Shown here piece by piece: positions 1,988 to 47,532 of a DNA stretch of 47,532 bases. The notes under the pieces are model-generated. The model did no database searches. It had not been told where the DNA came from and worked only from the letters and a program-made list of their open reading frames with translations. The translations under genes were made by a program, and so were the position numbers. Every line of letters begins with the position of its first letter. Position 1 is the first letter of the stretch. The DNA comes from a virus (lineage: Duplodnaviria > Heunggongvirae > Uroviricota > Caudoviricetes): positions 1 through 47,532 of the IMG/VR virus record IMGVR_UViG_2690316161_000023. The stretch is one strand, 5' to 3'.

Positions 1988-2520
1988 TTGCTTGTTATTT
2001 CTGCATTTTCATAAACGTTGGTTTGGGAGAAGGCTCTGCATTACCGGTTGGGGTGCCTGTTCCGTGGCCTTCAGCCACTCCGCCAACAGGCTGGCTGAAA
2101 TGCAACGGTGCCGCTTTTTCTGCTGAAGAATACCCGGAACTGGCAAAGGCTTATCCGGCAAATAAATTGCCTGATTTACGTGGTGAGTTTATTCGTGGCT
2201 GGGATGACGGGCGTGGTATTGATGCTGTACGTGCCTTGCTAAGTCTTCAGAATGGAGGAGTGGAATCACACACCCACCAAGGGCAGCTCTTCAGAGTTAG
2301 TGATTATCGTACAAAAGAAATACCAGCATCAGAAGTTATGGGAAGAGGATATATTGCAAGCCTGACGCCGGGTGCTGATAGCCCACTTGATTTTGATGAT
2401 TATCCTGTATCTTCTAATCCAAATGGATATTTTGTCGGGAATCAGAGAACAACAGCATATGGGATAAATGAAACCCGTCCACGGAATATTGCATTTAACT
2501 ATATCGTGAGGGCTGCATAA
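1963..2520 (+). CDS. Alternate tail-fibre C-terminal segment (Sv'-like), not fused to a fibre N-terminus in this copy
   Basis: Residues from [15 protein letters not shown] onward are identical to the C-terminus of the 285-aa fibre at 7502-8359; the upstream part of the ORF is not fibre sequence. Confidence 0.6.
   Translation: MVKAGMMPFACYFCIFINVGLGEGSALPVGVPVPWPSATPPTGWLKCNGAAFSAEEYPELAKAYPANKLPDLRGEFIRGWDDGRGIDAVRALLSLQNGGVESHTHQGQLFRVSDYRTKEIPASEVMGRGYIASLTPGADSPLDFDDYPVSSNPNGYFVGNQRTTAYGINETRPRNIAFNYIVRAA
2006..2031. other. hix/gix-like 26-bp crossover site (outer site of copy A, invertase side)
   Basis: ttttcataaacg-tt-ggtttgggagaa; the ggtttgggagaa half is shared with the site at 7992-8017. 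Confidence 0.5.
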
Positions 2521-3122
2521 TGGATAACGCTGTATTAAATAGCGAGTTTATTGCTACAAAGGCGGGGAATATTACCGTCTATAACTATGATGGCGAAACA
2601 CGGGAATATATTTCCACATCAACTGAATATCTTGCCGTTGGTATCGGTATCCCTGCATATTCCTGTTTAGATGCCCCTGGCACATACAAAGCTGGTTATG
2701 CAATCTGCCGATCTGTAGATTTTAACTCATGGGAATATGTGCCAGACCATCGCGGTGAAATCGTCTTTAGCACCGAAACAGGAGAATCAAAAGAAATCAC
2801 AGCTCCGGGTGATTACCCTGATAATACAACCACTATCGCCCCGTTAACGCCATACGATAAATGGGATGGTGAGAAATGGGTGACGGATACCGAAGCACAG
2901 CATAGCGCCGCAGTAGATGCAGCAGAAGCACAGCGCCAGTCACTGATTGATACTGCAATGGCTTCAATCAGTCTGATTCAGCTGAAATTGCAGGCCGGAC
3001 GTAAACTGACGCAGGCAGAAACAACCAGCCTTAACACTGTGCTGGATTACATTGACGCGGTGACGGCAACAGATACCAGCACCGCGCCGGATGTCATCTG
3101 GCCTGAACTGCCGGAGGCGTAG
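2520..3122 (+). CDS. Tail fibre assembly protein (cognate to the Sv' segment)
   Basis: 200-aa ORF directly after the fibre C-terminal segment; identical copy at 6900-7502. Confidence 0.7.
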   Translation: MDNAVLNSEFIATKAGNITVYNYDGETREYISTSTEYLAVGIGIPAYSCLDAPGTYKAGYAICRSVDFNSWEYVPDHRGEIVFSTETGESKEITAPGDYPDNTTTIAPLTPYDKWDGEKWVTDTEAQHSAAVDAAEAQRQSLIDTAMASISLIQLKLQAGRKLTQAETTSLNTVLDYIDAVTATDTSTAPDVIWPELPEA

Positions 3123-3534
3123 GCCATTCAATATCTGGCGCACTGGCGGTATCGACCAGCTCCAGTGCGCCCAGATAATCCAGCCACAAATTATATTGTG
3201 CCAGTTCCTCACCTTTCAGACGACCAATAGCTGCTTTACCAGGCCATTGCTTACCGTTCATGTAATCATTGGCTAAATCTATTCTTTTTTGCTTCTCCAC
3301 ATCAGCAGCGACAATTAATTCTTCTCGTGTAAGTGGAGGAATATCACCCCATGCTGGCATGTTATTTAAAGTTATAAGTTGCTTACCTGTAGGGGGAGTG
3401 CCGGAAAACTCATAATAAATGCTGTCACTAACGTTAATGGCATCATGTGGCCAACAATTATTATCAACATAATCAGCCTGCCACTCGATGGCATAAAAAC
3501 GGGACTCAGATGGACTGAACACAAAACGATTCAT
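3094..3534 (-). CDS. Tail fibre assembly protein (cognate to the Sv segment)
   Basis: 146-aa ORF directly after the fibre gene 3536-4201; identical copy at 6488-6928. Confidence 0.7.
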   Translation of the reverse strand: MNRFVFSPSESRFYAIEWQADYVDNNCWPHDAINVSDSIYYEFSGTPPTGKQLITLNNMPAWGDIPPLTREELIVAADVEKQKRIDLANDYMNGKQWPGKAAIGRLKGEELAQYNLWLDYLGALELVDTASAPDIEWPTPPAVQAR

Positions 3535-3535
3535 A

Positions 3536-4201
3536 TTAATATCCTATAGCTAAAAACATAGCGTCTGAGGTGTTTGTATTTACAGCAATATTCATCATGA
3601 CCTGAGCGGTAAATCCTGTATTGCTTACCCACTCGCATGAGTTAGTTATCTGAACCCATGTTAATTTGGTAGAAAAAACGCCCCAGCAATTAACAGGGAA
3701 CGGGACAGGGAAAGTCACTGGCACAGAATTTACTACACCGACAGTAGTCAAATTTGCGAGCGTCCGGCGAAACACCTGAATCTTAAGACCATCAGGACCT
3801 GTAAATAACAAATTATCGGTGTACTGCCCGCTTGCTCTTAAACCAAGGTTTTCGAGAGCCGTTTTCACTGTGCCGTCCGATTTGATATCGCCAAACGGAT
3901 TTTTGCGGCTCAGGTATTCAACAGCAAACCCCGATCCAAGCAATTCAACAAAACCGGGCAGATCACCATTATCAAGCACATCCCGTTGCGTTTTGTCACT
4001 TACAAACTGGGCCAGAGCTGCAGCAATAAAGCTGGCCTGTCGAATGGCTTTGTTCACCTGCGCACTGGATGCTTTCCCTGCTGTAAATCCGGATAAAAGC
4101 GCAGGCAACGCTTCCCATTCCTCCTGCGACATAACATTGGCATTTCGATCCGTTGCAAACGCTTTAAAGTCATTTTTCGCCATCAGAGTAATACTCCCCA
4201 T
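3536..4201 (-). CDS. Tail fibre protein, constant N-terminus fused to the Sv variable C-terminus (copy A)
   Basis: 221 aa; first ~120 aa identical to the 285-aa fibre at 7502-8359 and diverging after ...TALENLGL. Confidence 0.72.
   Translation of the reverse strand: MGSITLMAKNDFKAFATDRNANVMSQEEWEALPALLSGFTAGKASSAQVNKAIRQASFIAAALAQFVSDKTQRDVLDNGDLPGFVELLGSGFAVEYLSRKNPFGDIKSDGTVKTALENLGLRASGQYTDNLLFTGPDGLKIQVFRRTLANLTTVGVVNSVPVTFPVPFPVNCWGVFSTKLTWVQITNSCEWVSNTGFTAQVMMNIAVNTNTSDAMFLAIGY
3833..3858. other. hix/gix-like crossover site inside the tail fibre gene (copy A)
   Basis: tgctcttaaacc-aa-ggttttcgagag resembles the recalled Hin hixL site; lies exactly where constant and variable fibre sequence meet. 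Confidence 0.6.
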
Positions 4202-4863
4202 GCTCCTACATCAAAACCACTGATGAATTCGTTATCCATATCAAAACCAAAAAATTTTGAGCCTTCCGATGGGGTTTCCACCGAAGGTGTTTCAATGCCA
4301 CCCGCCCATACCCCGGCGGCTTTTACTGTGAGATACCCCTGTTTAATTGCCGCAATTAACTCACGCGATACATCTGAAATATCAGTATCAGGAAAGACCC
4401 AGACCGATATCGTCATGTCCTGGTTATCGACTATCTGCATTCGCAGCCCGGATCCTGCTGTTGCAGCGTCAAGAATTGCCGGAAGAGAATCATTCCGTCC
4501 ATCCCAGTTATTAATCGCAATCTTCGCTTTAAGAATGACACGATAAGTTTCATCGCTGAGGTACATGTATCCGGAATCAGGATCGTATGGTCCCTGCCAT
4601 ACCCCCTGATCATATCCAAGCCCGTCGGTATCCCAGCTGAAATAGACACCTGAGATAGGCTGGCTGACAACACGGCTACGTCCGATCCACAATCCCAGAA
4701 TGTCAAGTTGCACACCAACCGCAGAGTCAATATCAAATGCAGTAATCAGCCCTCTGGTGGCAGCCGCAACATCAATAAGCGGCCGGGTCATCAGATCAAC
4801 ATGCGCAAGAAATTTAGGTTTAGTGGCGTGGTAGTTCGTGATTAGTTCGGTGTATTTGCTCAT
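4183..4863 (-). CDS. Baseplate/tail protein (Mu gp48 / P2 gpI-like), copy A
   Basis: 226-aa ORF between the baseplate J-like gene and the tail fibre gene; identical copy at 8341-9021. Confidence 0.55.
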   Translation of the reverse strand: MSKYTELITNYHATKPKFLAHVDLMTRPLIDVAAATRGLITAFDIDSAVGVQLDILGLWIGRSRVVSQPISGVYFSWDTDGLGYDQGVWQGPYDPDSGYMYLSDETYRVILKAKIAINNWDGRNDSLPAILDAATAGSGLRMQIVDNQDMTISVWVFPDTDISDVSRELIAAIKQGYLTVKAAGVWAGGIETPSVETPSEGSKFFGFDMDNEFISGFDVGAWGVLL

Positions 4864-6059
4864 GACTCCACCGTTATAACGATATTTTCCGGGGTACAGG
4901 ACGCAGATTCGTTGTATCTGATATCAATGTTTGATGACGACAAAGCCCCCGGGGATTTCCCAATCGTCAGTTCCTGAATATCGTAATAGCGTGCATCCCC
5001 GCCACTCACCACGCCAAGATTCGCCGGTGAGTAAATGCGACTTAAAAGGACCGAATCACCAATCATCAGACTATTGATATAGTCGGAAATAGCCTGCTGG
5101 ATCTGCTGCCCTATCTGTGAGGTATAACCCGTAAAAACTTTTAATTTAATCCGGGCATAAACAGGCACATCACTGGAACGCGAGAATTTGATTACATGGG
5201 GATTGCCGTATTTATCCGGAACCGTAACGGATGTTGTACCGTGAGTGGCTGTCCCCTGGCCTTTATTCCCTCTGATAGCCTGAGCAATATCCGTCACATC
5301 ACCGCCATCCACAATTACAGCAACAGAGTGTGGCGGTAACCCGTTACCGTCCTCCGAACCAGTATCGTTTTCATAGAGTTTGTGGCGGGTTACACCGGTA
5401 ACATTAGAAACAGCACCATCCAGTGCTTCAAATGGGGTTATTGATGGCAACGCAACACTTTGCGACTGACGGATACGTAACTCCGCGTCAGTTTCTGCCG
5501 GAGTGCCCACAGTAGCCGCAGCAGGATTAGTTACCGAAACCCAGCCACGGGTTGGCGTATTAATTTCAGTGATAGTTCCAGCCAGCGCCGCCACTGCACC
5601 ACTGACGGAACATGTTGCGGTCGCCATCACTGTACCATCCACGCCGACCACTACTGAAGCAGGCAAACGCCATATCACATTATTACTGTCTTTCACGCTG
5701 CCATTAATGATGGTTGTTCCGGCAGTTCCTGCAAGAAGCAAATCAACCGTAGAGTTCGTCGCGCCTTTACGTGAAATACCATTTATTTTCACGTTACTGG
5801 TCAGTGCAGCCCCATAGCCGGTTGCCGGTGAAAAACAGTTGTAGACAGTTATCGCCATATTATTGGCATCATGAATCGCCAGCGCCATCAGAGCCACCAT
5901 CTGGCCGTCTTTGCTGTCCGGTTCGAGGTAGGCATCACTGCCATAAATCTGCTGAAAATAGCTAATCAGGGTGCTGAGTATCGTCTGATAATCAGGCGCA
6001 CTGATCCCCTCCGCGGTTACCTTTGCAGATAAACCGAGAGAATCAAGGTTCAGAGCCAT
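4860..6059 (-). CDS. Baseplate J-like protein, copy A
   Basis: 399-aa ORF in the baseplate wedge position; differs from copy B (9018-10217) by one residue (D here, N there). Confidence 0.65.
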   Translation of the reverse strand: MALNLDSLGLSAKVTAEGISAPDYQTILSTLISYFQQIYGSDAYLEPDSKDGQMVALMALAIHDANNMAITVYNCFSPATGYGAALTSNVKINGISRKGATNSTVDLLLAGTAGTTIINGSVKDSNNVIWRLPASVVVGVDGTVMATATCSVSGAVAALAGTITEINTPTRGWVSVTNPAAATVGTPAETDAELRIRQSQSVALPSITPFEALDGAVSNVTGVTRHKLYENDTGSEDGNGLPPHSVAVIVDGGDVTDIAQAIRGNKGQGTATHGTTSVTVPDKYGNPHVIKFSRSSDVPVYARIKLKVFTGYTSQIGQQIQQAISDYINSLMIGDSVLLSRIYSPANLGVVSGGDARYYDIQELTIGKSPGALSSSNIDIRYNESASCTPENIVITVES

Positions 6060-6174
6060 TACGCCTCCGATGTAACAGTCGTTATTCCATAAAGAGTGTC
6101 GATTTCAGCGGAAAACATGACACGTCGGGTCGTGGTATCCACTGTCGTATTGAAAGAGAGGATTGATTTAACGC
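6060..6174 (-). pseudogene. Duplicated 3'-terminal fragment of the gp46-like baseplate gene
   Basis: ~115 bp matching 10218-10332 (last ~37 codons of the 117-aa gene) with no 5' part. Confidence 0.7.
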
Positions 6175-6487: not shown

Positions 6488-6928
6488 ATGAATCGTTTTG
6501 TGTTCAGTCCATCTGAGTCCCGTTTTTATGCCATCGAGTGGCAGGCTGATTATGTTGATAATAATTGTTGGCCACATGATGCCATTAACGTTAGTGACAG
6601 CATTTATTATGAGTTTTCCGGCACTCCCCCTACAGGTAAGCAACTTATAACTTTAAATAACATGCCAGCATGGGGTGATATTCCTCCACTTACACGAGAA
6701 GAATTAATTGTCGCTGCTGATGTGGAGAAGCAAAAAAGAATAGATTTAGCCAATGATTACATGAACGGTAAGCAATGGCCTGGTAAAGCAGCTATTGGTC
6801 GTCTGAAAGGTGAGGAACTGGCACAATATAATTTGTGGCTGGATTATCTGGGCGCACTGGAGCTGGTCGATACCGCCAGTGCGCCAGATATTGAATGGCC
6901 TACGCCTCCGGCAGTTCAGGCCAGATGA
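6488..6928 (+). CDS. Tail fibre assembly protein, inverted copy (copy B)
   Basis: Identical to 3094-3534, opposite strand. Confidence 0.7.
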   Translation: MNRFVFSPSESRFYAIEWQADYVDNNCWPHDAINVSDSIYYEFSGTPPTGKQLITLNNMPAWGDIPPLTREELIVAADVEKQKRIDLANDYMNGKQWPGKAAIGRLKGEELAQYNLWLDYLGALELVDTASAPDIEWPTPPAVQAR

Positions 6929-7502
6929 CATCCGGCGCGGTGCTGGTATCTGTTGCCGTCACCGCGTCAATGTAATCCAGCACAGTGTTAAGGCTGGTTG
7001 TTTCTGCCTGCGTCAGTTTACGTCCGGCCTGCAATTTCAGCTGAATCAGACTGATTGAAGCCATTGCAGTATCAATCAGTGACTGGCGCTGTGCTTCTGC
7101 TGCATCTACTGCGGCGCTATGCTGTGCTTCGGTATCCGTCACCCATTTCTCACCATCCCATTTATCGTATGGCGTTAACGGGGCGATAGTGGTTGTATTA
7201 TCAGGGTAATCACCCGGAGCTGTGATTTCTTTTGATTCTCCTGTTTCGGTGCTAAAGACGATTTCACCGCGATGGTCTGGCACATATTCCCATGAGTTAA
7301 AATCTACAGATCGGCAGATTGCATAACCAGCTTTGTATGTGCCAGGGGCATCTAAACAGGAATATGCAGGGATACCGATACCAACGGCAAGATATTCAGT
7401 TGATGTGGAAATATATTCCCGTGTTTCGCCATCATAGTTATAGACGGTAATATTCCCCGCCTTTGTAGCAATAAACTCGCTATTTAATACAGCGTTATCC
7501 AT
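6900..7502 (-). CDS. Tail fibre assembly protein cognate to Sv' (copy B)
   Basis: Identical to 2520-3122, opposite strand. Confidence 0.7.
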   Translation of the reverse strand: MDNAVLNSEFIATKAGNITVYNYDGETREYISTSTEYLAVGIGIPAYSCLDAPGTYKAGYAICRSVDFNSWEYVPDHRGEIVFSTETGESKEITAPGDYPDNTTTIAPLTPYDKWDGEKWVTDTEAQHSAAVDAAEAQRQSLIDTAMASISLIQLKLQAGRKLTQAETTSLNTVLDYIDAVTATDTSTAPDVIWPELPEA

Positions 7503-8359
7503 TATGCAGCCCTCACGATATAGTTAAATGCAATATTCCGTGGACGGGTTTCATTTATCCCATATGCTGTTGTTCTCTGATTCCCGACAAAATATCCATT
7601 TGGATTAGAAGATACAGGATAATCATCAAAATCAAGTGGGCTATCAGCACCCGGCGTCAGGCTTGCAATATATCCTCTTCCCATAACTTCTGATGCTGGT
7701 ATTTCTTTTGTACGATAATCACTAACTCTGAAGAGCTGCCCTTGGTGGGTGTGTGATTCCACTCCTCCATTCTGAAGACTTAGCAAGGCACGTACAGCAT
7801 CAATACCACGCCCGTCATCCCAGCCACGAATAAACTCACCACGTAAATCAGGCAATTTATTTGCCGGATAAGCCTTTGCCAGTTCCGGGTATTCTTCAGC
7901 AGAAAAAGCGGCACCGTTGCATTTCAGCCAGCCTGTTGGCGGAGTGGCTGAAGGCCACGGAACAGGCACCCCAACCGGTAATGCAGAGCCTTCTCCCAAA
8001 CCAAGGTTTTCGAGAGCCGTTTTCACTGTGCCGTCCGATTTGATATCGCCAAACGGATTTTTGCGGCTCAGGTATTCAACAGCAAACCCCGATCCAAGCA
8101 ATTCAACAAAACCGGGCAGATCACCATTATCAAGCACATCCCGTTGCGTTTTGTCACTTACAAACTGGGCCAGAGCTGCAGCAATAAAGCTGGCCTGTCG
8201 AATGGCTTTGTTCACCTGCGCACTGGATGCTTTCCCTGCTGTAAATCCGGATAAAAGCGCAGGCAACGCTTCCCATTCCTCCTGCGACATAACATTGGCA
8301 TTTCGATCCGTTGCAAACGCTTTAAAGTCATTTTTCGCCATCAGAGTAATACTCCCCAT
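7502..8359 (-). CDS. Tail fibre protein, constant N-terminus fused to the Sv' variable C-terminus (copy B)
   Basis: 285 aa; same N-terminus as 3536-4201; C-terminus identical to the segment at 2020-2520. Confidence 0.72.
7992..8017. other. hix/gix-like crossover site inside the tail fibre gene (copy B)
   Basis: ttctcccaaacc-aa-ggttttcgagag. Confidence 0.6.
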
Positions 8360-32264: not shown

Positions 32265-32417
32265 TTACTCCTCAGGTTCGTAAGCTGTGAAGACAGCGAC
32301 CTCCGTCTGGCCGGTTCGGATTCGTACCTCGCAGAGGTCTTTCCTCGTTACCAGTGCCGTCACTATGACGGTTAAACAGATGACGATCAGGGCGACTAAC
32401 ATCGCCTTTTGCTGCTT
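32265..32417 (-). CDS. hokD: Hok-family type I toxin (HokD/RelF-like)
   Basis: 51 aa MKQQKAMLVALIVICLTVIVTALVTRKDLCEVRIRTGQTEVAVFTAYEPEE; the ORF call includes an in-frame upstream extension. Confidence 0.8.
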   Translation of the reverse strand, partial: KQQKAMLVALIVICLTVIVTALVTRKDLCEVRIRTGQTEVAVFTAYEPEE

Positions 32418-32520
32418 CATAGCCTGCTTCTCCTTGACCTTTCGGTCCGTAAGAGGCAATCTATATGTGACGAGCATATAGGGGCCTCACTTCGATTTAT
32501 AGTCGGGTGGGGCTTTTATC
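32418..32520 (-). promoter_or_regulatory. hok 5' regulatory region (expected mok/sok-type control)
   Basis: By analogy with hok/sok loci; no promoter or antisense RNA was mapped here. Confidence 0.3.
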
Positions 32521-32824
32521 TATCTGCCGTTGGTGTTCATGCCCGAGGCAGACAGCCTCAAGCACCCGCAGCTATTCTACTTAACTATCCTTTTCCCGCA
32601 AATCGTTTTATCCTCAACGCAAATTTCACCAATCCTCCTCCAACTCGTGTCCCTTACCCTAAGGCTGTTTCCCTCTTTACACAGAAGATAATTAATGTAT
32701 TATTTTTTACAAACAATCAGTTAAGAGCTATCTGTGGGTGGAGTCGCCTTGCGGTAGCTTTTCCTTTTATGCATTGCACACATACATGCTCTAATATATT
32801 CCTATATGTTCAAAAGGACTTTTC

Positions 32825-33757
32825 ATGCACAGCGTTAACTTCTATTCATTCCGTGTGTTAACCCACAAGGGCAGCCGAACCAGCAAAAGACTAAACAACC
32901 TAGGTTTAAGCGATAAAAAAACAGCATATGAATTATTTGTTGAGTATTTTAATAGCTATAAAAACACACCTATTGAATTTGGTCTCTCGAAAACAAAGGT
33001 TTCTCTTGAACAACACACATCACTCACCTTTGATGCTCAAAACCAAGTAATATATGGATATGTAAAGGTTGGGAAATATGGTGAGAGCAGTGAAATAAAA
33101 GACGATAAACTTACTAAAATACGTTATACAACAACTATCAACGATGTAACTCTCAAACAGCGTTACATTTTAATATTTTTGCCAGACAATTTAGAAGAAG
33201 GGATTATAGCATTTCACGCTAATGACAATATTTCTGCTCGCAGCACACTCTCTGATGCATTACTAGACCACTTGAAAACAAAATATAAACTTGAAGCGAG
33301 AATCAATCCCCTTTGCCACAAAAAAATTCCCCAACACATCCTTGATTCAGAATTAAAACAAATAAAAGCCCAAGGTTACAAAGCACCAAAGGACATCACG
33401 GATTCATTCGGAAATAACAAAACAAACATCAAAACTGATTTGGTAATAAAAGCAAATCAAGGCGTATTTGGTAGTTTTAAAGACTTAAAAGACAAAAAAC
33501 TAGGAAATATAATAGAAATAATTGAAGATAAGTGTGACGCAATAAAAGTTAGTTTACAATTAGGCAATAGAACAGTCATTTTTAATTACGACACCATCTT
33601 AAGAAAAGGAATTTCTGCCGAATTAGATGATAACGACTTAAACATAAACGCATCTACAGGAATCCCCGATCTTAAAGCACTTCATGACACTGTTAAAATC
33701 ATTGCGAATGATATACTAAGTGAGTTACATAGTGGTAATGGGGGAGTAAAAATATGA
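32825..33757 (+). CDS. Unrecognised 310-aa protein, first gene of a low-GC two-gene module
   Basis: AT-rich ORF with RBS aaggac before the ATG; opposite strand to the surrounding early operon; overlaps the next gene by 4 bp. Confidence 0.6.
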   Translation: MHSVNFYSFRVLTHKGSRTSKRLNNLGLSDKKTAYELFVEYFNSYKNTPIEFGLSKTKVSLEQHTSLTFDAQNQVIYGYVKVGKYGESSEIKDDKLTKIRYTTTINDVTLKQRYILIFLPDNLEEGIIAFHANDNISARSTLSDALLDHLKTKYKLEARINPLCHKKIPQHILDSELKQIKAQGYKAPKDITDSFGNNKTNIKTDLVIKANQGVFGSFKDLKDKKLGNIIEIIEDKCDAIKVSLQLGNRTVIFNYDTILRKGISAELDDNDLNINASTGIPDLKALHDTVKIIANDILSELHSGNGGVKI

Positions 33758-34011
33758 ACAAGATTAACGTAATGAGTGTAATAAAAAAACATTACACAAC
33801 AATGTCGGATCAACGCGGAAATATTTTACTCGAAGACATCGCAATACACTTCATCATTCCTCTTACATTATCATTAATCATATGTTTTACCTATGGGATA
33901 ATGAAAACCTCTATCGCATCTGTTTTTGTTAACTTTGGAGCAATTACTACCGCACTATTAATGAGCGCGGTTATTATGATCTACGATCAAAAACAAAAAA
34001 ACTGTATTTAA
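33754..34011 (+). CDS. Small membrane protein (two predicted transmembrane helices), probably the 5' part of a longer frameshifted gene
   Basis: 85 aa with hydrophobic stretches IAIHFIIPLTLSLIICFTYGI and IASVFVNFGAITTALLMSAVIMIY; stop follows an A-run. Confidence 0.55.
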   Translation: MNKINVMSVIKKHYTTMSDQRGNILLEDIAIHFIIPLTLSLIICFTYGIMKTSIASVFVNFGAITTALLMSAVIMIYDQKQKNCI

Positions 34012-34309
34012 AATTTCAGACATTGAGGAAAACAACAAACCACGTTCAAATCTAATAATTTTAAATAATAATAAAACCGTATATGAGCAATTATGTCACA
34101 ATGTTTCTTATGCCATATTAACATCTGTAGCGTTAGTTATTTTTTCGGTTGCAATATATTTTCTCCCAGAACCCCCAAGTGAATTAAAAAAATGGTATTT
34201 CGCAACCCCTGCTTACATAATCAGTTATTTAGCATACTCATCCTTCTTTTTTACCGTAGTAACATTCTTGATGGTTATAAAAAGATTTAGCACAATATTA
34301 GATAGTTAA
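34001..34309 (+). other. Open +1-frame continuation encoding two more transmembrane helices, no start codon
   Basis: About 102 stop-free codons in AT-rich DNA (...YAILTSVALVIFSVAIYFL...YIISYLAYSSFFFTVVTFLMVI...); removing one A from the run at about 33995-34001 would fuse it to the 85-aa ORF. Confidence 0.5.
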
Positions 34310-34318
34310 ACAATGGAA

Positions 34319-34342
34319 CCGCCGCCCTTTCGGGCGGCTTCC
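34319..34342. repeat. GC-rich hairpin, copy 1
   Basis: gccgccc-tttc-gggcggc; near-identical hairpin at about 35384-35406. Confidence 0.5.
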
Positions 34343-34370
34343 TGATGTTCTAAGGGTGCAGAAATCCCTC

Positions 34371-34430
34371 CGGTTAAGGATTAAATTTTTAACAGAGCTA
34401 AATTTAATTATTCAGTTCTGGATTTTGTCG
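34371..34430. repeat. ~60-bp leader/promoter-like repeat, copy 1
   Basis: ccggttaaggattaaattttt...ttaattattcagttctggatt, about 80 percent identical to 35635-35700. Confidence 0.5.
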
Positions 34431-46798: not shown

Positions 46799-46928
46799 TT
46801 TTAACGTAAATGGATTGTTAAATGTATTTTGGTTGTGATATAACCAAAAAAGACCGGAATACAGAAATTCGAGTAAATTTCGGGGAATTTCGGGAAGACG
46901 TTTGCAACTAATTGATTTTAAATACAAT

Positions 46929-46960
46929 TAAAAAAAGACCGAATACGATTCCTGTATTCG
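46929..46960. repeat. attL: core inside the sdsR terminator stem (core about 46937-46955)
   Basis: aaaaaaagaccgaatacgattcctgtattcgg, imperfect match to 1065-1098. Confidence 0.6.
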
Positions 46961-47032
46961 GTCCAGGGAAATGGCTCTTGGGAGAGAGCCGTGCGCTAAA
47001 AGTTGGCATTAATGCAGGCTTAGTTGCCTTGC
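46930..47032 (-). ncRNA. sdsR: sRNA SdsR (RyeB)
   Basis: Minus strand reads GCAAGGCAACTAAGCCTGCATTAATGCC...terminator hairpin and T-run, matching the recalled SdsR sequence. Confidence 0.65.
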
Positions 47033-47121
47033 CCTTTAAGAATAGATGACGACGCCAGGTTTTCCAGTTTGCGTGCAAAATGGTCAATAAAAAGCGTGGT
47101 GGTCATCAGCTGAAATGTTAA

Positions 47122-47160
47122 AAACCGCCCGTTCTGGTGAAAGAACTGAGGCGGTTTTTT
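47122..47160 (-). terminator. Hairpin terminator downstream of yebY
   Basis: Imperfect GC-rich hairpin flanked by A- and T-runs. Confidence 0.4.
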
Positions 47161-47190
47161 TATTGGAAATCAAAAGGCTATTTTAGGTAA

Positions 47191-47532
47191 TTAACAGAGT
47201 TTTTCAGCTCGTTCTATAAACGGTGCCAGACTCATTTTTTCGCCGGGATTGTTAGGATCATCAATCTGAATCACCGAAATGGGTTGGGCTTTAGTCTTCC
47301 CACTGGCAACTTCCTTTTGTGCGATATCGTTTAAAGGATACTGCACGAGGGTACTTGGGTTGATGACATACAAAGCATTACCCGGTCGGCAAGTCAGCAT
47401 CACCTCTTCGCGATTAAACGCCCATTTGTCTTTACCCACTTCAAAACGGCTGACGGTAATCACCTGCGGTGCAGCCAGCGCCGCTGCAGAACTGGTGAGT
47501 AACAGAAACGCCAGAATACTTTTTTTCATCAT
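47191..47532 (-). CDS. yebY: Conserved host protein YebY with N-terminal signal peptide
   Basis: 113 aa; signal peptide [20 protein letters not shown]; located next to sdsR. Confidence 0.65.

Follow-up and report, generated by a model that had tools for sequence, protein, structure and literature searches.

Interruption of a prophage membrane protein gene at an adenine run

The stretch of viral DNA analysed here (the window, 47,532 nucleotides, IMG/VR record IMGVR_UViG_2690316161_000023) very probably, at roughly 0.82, carries a loss-of-function allele of a conserved gene for a four-helix membrane protein of 184 aa, in which a run of six adenines (A6) has become a run of seven (A7). The frameshift is routine gene decay in prophage cargo and of consequence chiefly for annotation. 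The 85-aa ORF that is left and the seemingly empty ~300 bases behind it should be merged there into a single pseudogene instead of standing as a small protein followed by an intergenic region.

The affected gene is preceded on the + strand by an intact gene (32825..33757) for a 310-aa soluble protein with a RexA/RdgC-type fold, a putative sensor or activator. The TGA of this upstream gene is overlapped by the ATG of the membrane gene (ATGA, 33754-33757), with a GGAG located ~9 nt upstream. The truncated ORF (33754..34011, +) consists of 82 authentic codons, covering helices 1 and 2, followed by three out-of-frame codons and a stop (...IYDQKQK-NCI-TAA in translation). Read directly on the + strand, the site comprises C33988, five adenines at 33989-33993, C33994, the A7 run at 33995-34001 and C34002. 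The initial annotation had placed the end of the 85-aa ORF right after this run, and the order CAAAAAC-A7-C, then TAA, agrees with it. The run, where the one-base insertion lies, is A6 throughout the intact orthologues of both E. coli allele classes.

Beyond the run, the +1 frame remains open for 102 codons, from ACT at 34001 to TAA at 34307-34309. This stranded segment (34001..34309, +) holds codons 83-184 and the stop, and thereby the last part of helix 2, all of helices 3 and 4 and, at the C terminus, the invariant TFLMxxKRFS motif. As had been described, it has no start near its beginning: the only ATG, GTG or TTG codons in the frame are TTG at 34268 and ATG at 34271, 12-13 codons from the stop, so that the segment cannot be translated by itself and helices 3 and 4 and the C-terminal motif are lost to translation. 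The open stretch amounts to 110 codons (109 sense codons and a stop) and offers no start before codon 97, on which ground a split gene with an independently initiated C-terminal half was rejected.

The openness of this frame was said to be improbable by chance, and the calculation bears this out. The GC content of the region is 32.5% (48% for the whole window), which gives a stop probability of 0.076 per codon, or an expected stop about every 13 codons. For the 109 sense codons open in the +1 frame from 33980, the probability by composition is 1.8e-4, and of 20,000 mononucleotide shuffles made from the 102 codons, 9 remained open, placing the chance of such a frame at ~2-5e-4. The other two + frames contain 14 and 9 stops over the same stretch.

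Deletion of one A restores a 184-aa protein, the length of the A6 orthologues and, within a residue, that of the ~185-aa four-helix protein originally proposed. Hydropathy places helices at ~29-49 and ~56-76 before the run and at ~117-139 and ~155-176 after it, the latter being the two further hydrophobic helices that had been noticed in the +1 frame. In the AF2 model of the intact protein (pLDDT 88, pTM 0.82), the helices are predicted at 26-47, 52-92, 97-135 and 147-183; the break at codon 83 lies within the second and removes the third and fourth. Replication slippage would have stretched the A6 run, which belongs to the codons for Gln-Lys-Gln-Lys-Thr, to A7, upon which translation stops three codons further on and leaves the 85-aa two-helix fragment.

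Six nucleotides past the full-length stop, between convergent genes, lies a GC-rich hairpin (34315..34342, no strand assigned; core GCCGCCC-TTTC-GGGCGGC at 34321-34338) that resembles a terminator at the end of the operon. Its predicted RNA fold has an energy of -20.6 kcal/mol (z = -3.7), and none of 200 shuffles was equally stable. A simple terminator scan missed the hairpin owing to the lack of a T run.

The gene is intact and conserved in related elements

Among 5,426 complete E. coli genomes, 37 carry the two-gene region, 36 of them at a coverage of at least 80%, and all 36 have two genes annotated under the match. The matches form two classes, with ~99% and ~75% identity to the window; close matches span one base less than the window region does. 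The second gene of EC11, from the 99% class, and that of E24377A, from the 75% class, each measure 555 nt and are annotated with a 184-aa product; both carry A6 against the A7 of the window, the sole frame-changing difference in the alignment. A6 was read directly in 14 loci from complete and draft genomes, SRA re-assemblies, IMG/VR contigs and metagenomes, while among the loci read A7 occurs only in L004/L007, L005 and L017. Residues 1-82 of the 85-aa product are identical to those of a 184-aa protein (P0001). With one A removed, the window gene shows no nucleotide difference from the intact gene of a metagenome scaffold (L011), so the frameshift is a single recent step with no later decay.

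The family, conserved across Enterobacterales, extends over 44 related protein clusters found by search, from Escherichia, Salmonella, Klebsiella, Cronobacter, Pantoea, Enterobacter, Providencia and Proteus, with identity down to 39%. Full-length members measure 175-195 aa, and the shorter ones are fragments or truncated forms. The alignment of orthologues, which had been proposed as a check on the frameshift, thus finds them intact, and there is no group that consistently ends at the 85-aa stop. An alignment of 18 of the 44 clusters contains 41 invariant columns; among the 17 past the break are Y110, L113, C114 and N116, along with the C-terminal T..TF.M..KRF block. When the two E. coli allele classes are compared, pN/pS amounts to 0.16 over codons 1-82, to 0.22 over codons 83-184 and to 0.17 in the neighbouring gene. 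Judged by these sequence comparisons, the C-terminal half of the membrane gene is under purifying selection.

Origin of the A7 allele

The A7 run is most likely no one-off sequencing error but a real inactivating mutation, recent and clonal. Six contigs of differing lengths and one IMG/VR contig encode precisely this 85-aa product (P0002). The sources comprise the NCBI assembly GCA_001265995.1, whose contig matches the window at 100% identity across 12,258 nt, the accessions CTV33930.1, CTV37061.1 and CTV76325.1, and Logan contigs from ERR137798 and other samples. The allele is thus found in at least four assemblies or sources, which may be one clone or re-assemblies of shared reads. In ~37 kb aligned between the window and the prophages of strains P4 and PEC209 and scaffold L011, no other isolated one-base indel falls within conserved coding sequence; the remaining indels are intergenic or paired inside divergent stretches. 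An assembly-wide homopolymer problem was accordingly rejected, the other isolated one-base indels being intergenic or in divergent stretches. The recurrence of A7 in at least four assemblies, together with the absence of any other homopolymer indel in coding sequence, favours a real clonal mutation; the identity of the rest of the gene to the intact allele marks it as recent, and the presence of the same allele in several assemblies as probably heritable.

Other members of the family carry breaks of their own. Within the 90% identity cluster, the same run is A5 in one Logan contig (P0058), whose tail LYLKFQTLRK... is exactly that of the -1 frame, a second run has changed from A7 to A6 in P0005, and C4 has become C3 in P0011. 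The E24377A-type class contains at least two further broken alleles. In the complete genome of strain 64EVA (L002 3955-4383), an extra C after a T6 run results in a 142-aa product, with IS421 nearby; this frameshift is either a real mutation or a long-read homopolymer error. The 310-aa gene also occurs in N-terminally truncated 131-aa forms that begin at residue 180 (P0019 and P0021, on 21 and 10 contigs), so the sensor gene is disrupted too in some lineages. The several broken alleles make the run a mutational hot spot and the module one that decays repeatedly. Since the breaks are few among ~1000 contigs, scattered over the gene, and the tract is short, this pattern most likely reflects ordinary decay rather than a contingency switch.

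The initial annotation had left three explanations side by side, namely inactivating mutation, homopolymer sequencing error and programmed slippage. Mutation is the one that gains support, from the several assemblies, the single step that separates the gene from an intact allele and the otherwise clean window. A sequencing or assembly error, in which the strain truly carries A6 and an intact 184-aa gene, is unlikely. One base in a seven-base homopolymer is a classic error site, the NCBI and IMG/VR contigs with 100% identity to the window possibly stem from one assembly, and the different single-base frameshift of 64EVA may itself be an error. However, the same product stands under the three further NCBI accessions and in the Logan samples on contigs of varied length, the ~37 kb aligned to relatives holds no second isolated homopolymer indel that breaks coding sequence, and A6 was called without trouble on ~1000 other contigs. 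Programmed recoding, by which +1 ribosomal frameshifting or transcriptional slippage at the run would normally yield the full-length protein and the 85-aa form would be a second, regulated product, has a negligible probability and is refuted by the in-frame orthologues and the run length. Adenine runs are known slippage sites (PMC1088944), and A7 places an in-frame A_AAA_AAC heptamer at 33996-34002. Yet the out-of-frame arrangement is not shared by the orthologues, which are all in frame: the E. coli alleles have A6, Serratia lacks the run (CAG AAA TCA AAG) and the Yersinia sequence differs at the site. A -1 shift at the heptamer reads LYLKFQTLRKTTNHVQI*, leading away from the conserved frame into the same tail as the A5 allele P0058; -1 ribosomal frameshifting was rejected, since the -1 frame runs into a stop after 17 codons and the shift required is +1. 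Slippage of E. coli RNA polymerase is reported to need at least seven T and more in the case of A (PMC6260861), a requirement that seven adenines do not reach, and genome-wide selection against such runs is evident from ~9 nt (PMC1088944). Pseudo-pseudogenes such as Citrobacter rodentium tssM and Shigella mxiE are likewise interrupted at an A or T run with a conserved continuation in another frame, but their runs measure ~9 or more and the interruption is conserved or the product demonstrated (PMC1088944, PMC4256274), unlike the seven adenines and in-frame orthologues here. With a programmed mechanism rejected, trace rescue of the full-length protein may still occur.

Two further readings attribute a role to the altered run or to its product. 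The A run, with the other short runs of the gene, might act as a low-frequency reversible switch (A5/A6/A7) for the costly abortive-infection effector of an unrecognised RexAB-like family widespread among the prophages and plasmids of Enterobacterales, A7 being an 'off' state that is possibly leaky through polymerase slippage; this is decidedly improbable. Three run lengths are indeed public (A6 in the majority, A7 in the window, A5 in one Logan contig), A6 is retained in the 75%-identical E24377A allele, and other runs in the gene are struck as well (P0005, P0011). Six to seven bases are nevertheless short for a contingency tract, and the conserved QKQK residues, encoded in an AT-rich gene, account for the run; Serratia lacks it and Yersinia has a different sequence there, and the few broken alleles among ~1000 contigs are spread over several sites as in ordinary decay. 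The prospect that the 85-aa fragment is functional, as a dominant-negative or stand-alone small membrane protein, which would make the allele adaptive rather than null, is slimmer again. The family's most conserved block, VNFGAITTALLMSAV, is still present in the fragment, as is the translational coupling to the upstream gene, but 17 of the 41 invariant positions are gone, together with half of the helix bundle. The architecture of the fragment is found in no orthologue among the 44 related clusters, and the gene has not changed since the frameshift, with no sign of a new selection regime.

A two-gene module of RexAB-like architecture

Neither protein of the pair has an above-threshold match in PADLOC, Pfam, NCBIfam or PDB sequences, and the membrane protein gives only sub-threshold matches to DUF6419 and ABC2_membrane. 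The two genes correspond to PHROGs families 15676 and 15250, whose function is unannotated, and a literature search found the protein accessions and PHROG numbers mentioned in no paper of the library searched. A profile of 25 homologues of the 310-aa protein retrieves 598 clusters (50% identity) at E ≤1e-3 from 1.84 billion representative proteins by HMM search; these are mostly 300-320 aa in length and lack any Pfam match.

The genes also occur together at 37-41% identity in a Serratia prophage (309 and 179 aa, in the same lambdoid slot) and on a plasmid-like contig of Yersinia (311 and 178 aa), and the 4-nt ATGA overlap is common to the window, Serratia and Yersinia pairs. The Yersinia enterocolitica pair (L022 2434-3902, 37% identity) is accompanied by ParA/ParG, ArdC and a PLD-family nuclease, and its plasmid-like setting indicates that the module moves between mobile element types. 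Both structural models match proteins of a single uncultured phage, Siphoviridae sp. ctylc9 (BFVD A0A8S5S8L2 and A0A8S5S8H0): the 310-aa model matches a 314-aa protein at E 4.9e-8, and the membrane model a 172-aa protein with a probability of 1.00 and a TM of 0.52. These model-based matches hint that the pairing is conserved far beyond Enterobacterales.

The pair is somewhat better explained than not as a divergent RexAB-type abortive-infection module carried as cargo by lambdoid prophages and plasmids. Similarity of the modelled folds is the entire basis of this Rex assignment. The 310-aa partner displays the split two-domain fold of RexA, and the adjacent, ATGA-overlapping gene encodes a small membrane partner with four transmembrane helices by hydropathy and AF2. 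The closest known system is lambda RexA/RexB (RexA, PDB 8TWQ), to which the window pair is at most marginally similar in sequence. Neither Pfam RexA (PF15969) nor RexB is matched at E up to 1, and no signal (probabilities <1%) came from hhalign comparisons with the RexA and RexB of lambda or with a 21-sequence profile of the RexA family. A broadened 54-sequence profile aligned with the RexA family over 73 columns (P = 0.001, 21% probability), pairing ...NPL... with the invariant RexA EPLM, a match that is suggestive but no proof. A Foldseek search of BFVD with the membrane model returned nothing at E <0.09 and did not retrieve RexB, so that the likeness to RexB is one of architecture. The module lies several kb from the HTH repressor pair, not beside the prophage repressor. 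As both the family sequence signatures and the place beside cI are missing, the pair counts as RexAB-like by architecture and fold but stays outside the RexA and RexB families.

The module differs from lambda Rex in several further respects. Its membrane protein, with a long cytoplasmic helical hairpin, is larger (184 aa, against 144 aa in lambda), and the gene is broken in the window, unlike its lambda counterpart. The two genes overlap (ATGA), diverge from hokD and have the replication region on one side and the nin/Q region on the other, rather than cI next to them as in lambda. For RexABpp of Pseudomonas putida prophage P1 (PP_5643/PP_5644), anti-phage defence and RexB-dependent membrane damage were shown experimentally (PMC12894663). 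RexApp was found by HHpred with 98% probability and its locus lies near the repressor gene (PMC12894663), whereas the window module has neither an HHpred-type detection nor a known phenotype. RdgC (PDB 2OWL), a recombination-associated DNA-binding ring protein, scores below RexA; in contrast to the window protein, it is a stand-alone chromosomal or phage protein that has no membrane partner.

By analogy, the soluble RexA-fold protein would sense infection, perhaps through DNA or replication intermediates, and the activated four-helix membrane protein would damage or depolarise the inner membrane, aborting infection. With the sensor kept and the effector lost, exclusion should be abolished in the A7 prophage, and the allele would leave an orphan sensor that does no harm. 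With its nucleotide-identical A6 counterpart, the natural A7 allele forms an isogenic pair for testing both defence and the effector role. The analysis brings to light an unannotated module, probably of Rex type, for which Pfam, NCBIfam and PADLOC hold no model.

Prophage setting

The window contains a complete prophage inserted between yebW/pphA and yebY/copD, with Rac-like early genes and contractile-tail late genes. Comparison with annotated relatives assigns positions 1-2200 to yebV/yebW/pphA and 46800-47532 to yebY/copD; the host genes at both ends indicate that the window spans the whole integrated prophage with both junctions. The module constitutes an AT-rich two-gene operon between the DUF1367/YbcO/Q side and the DUF977/DUF1627/ydaV replication side.

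On its left, an ORF on the - strand (32265-32477) encodes a Hok/Gef-family toxin of 70 aa from the first ATG, annotated in relatives as hokD with 51 aa. A hokD-type gene, divergent from the module, is the left neighbour in all E. coli loci examined. In strain P4, the slot matching window positions ~32480-34400 (L013 11000-12900) is occupied by unrelated genes with dATP/dGTP pyrophosphohydrolase domains. The setting suggests that the slot between hokD and the DUF977 gene is an accessory-gene hot spot in this prophage type.

Elsewhere in the prophage, tail-fibre segments of a relative (L014) match the window in both orientations, at 2466-3360 and 6662-7556 as inverted copies and also at 3828-6174. 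A pinE-type recombinase adjoins these segments in L014, and the sequence arrangement is consistent with an invertible tail-fibre region that would affect host range.
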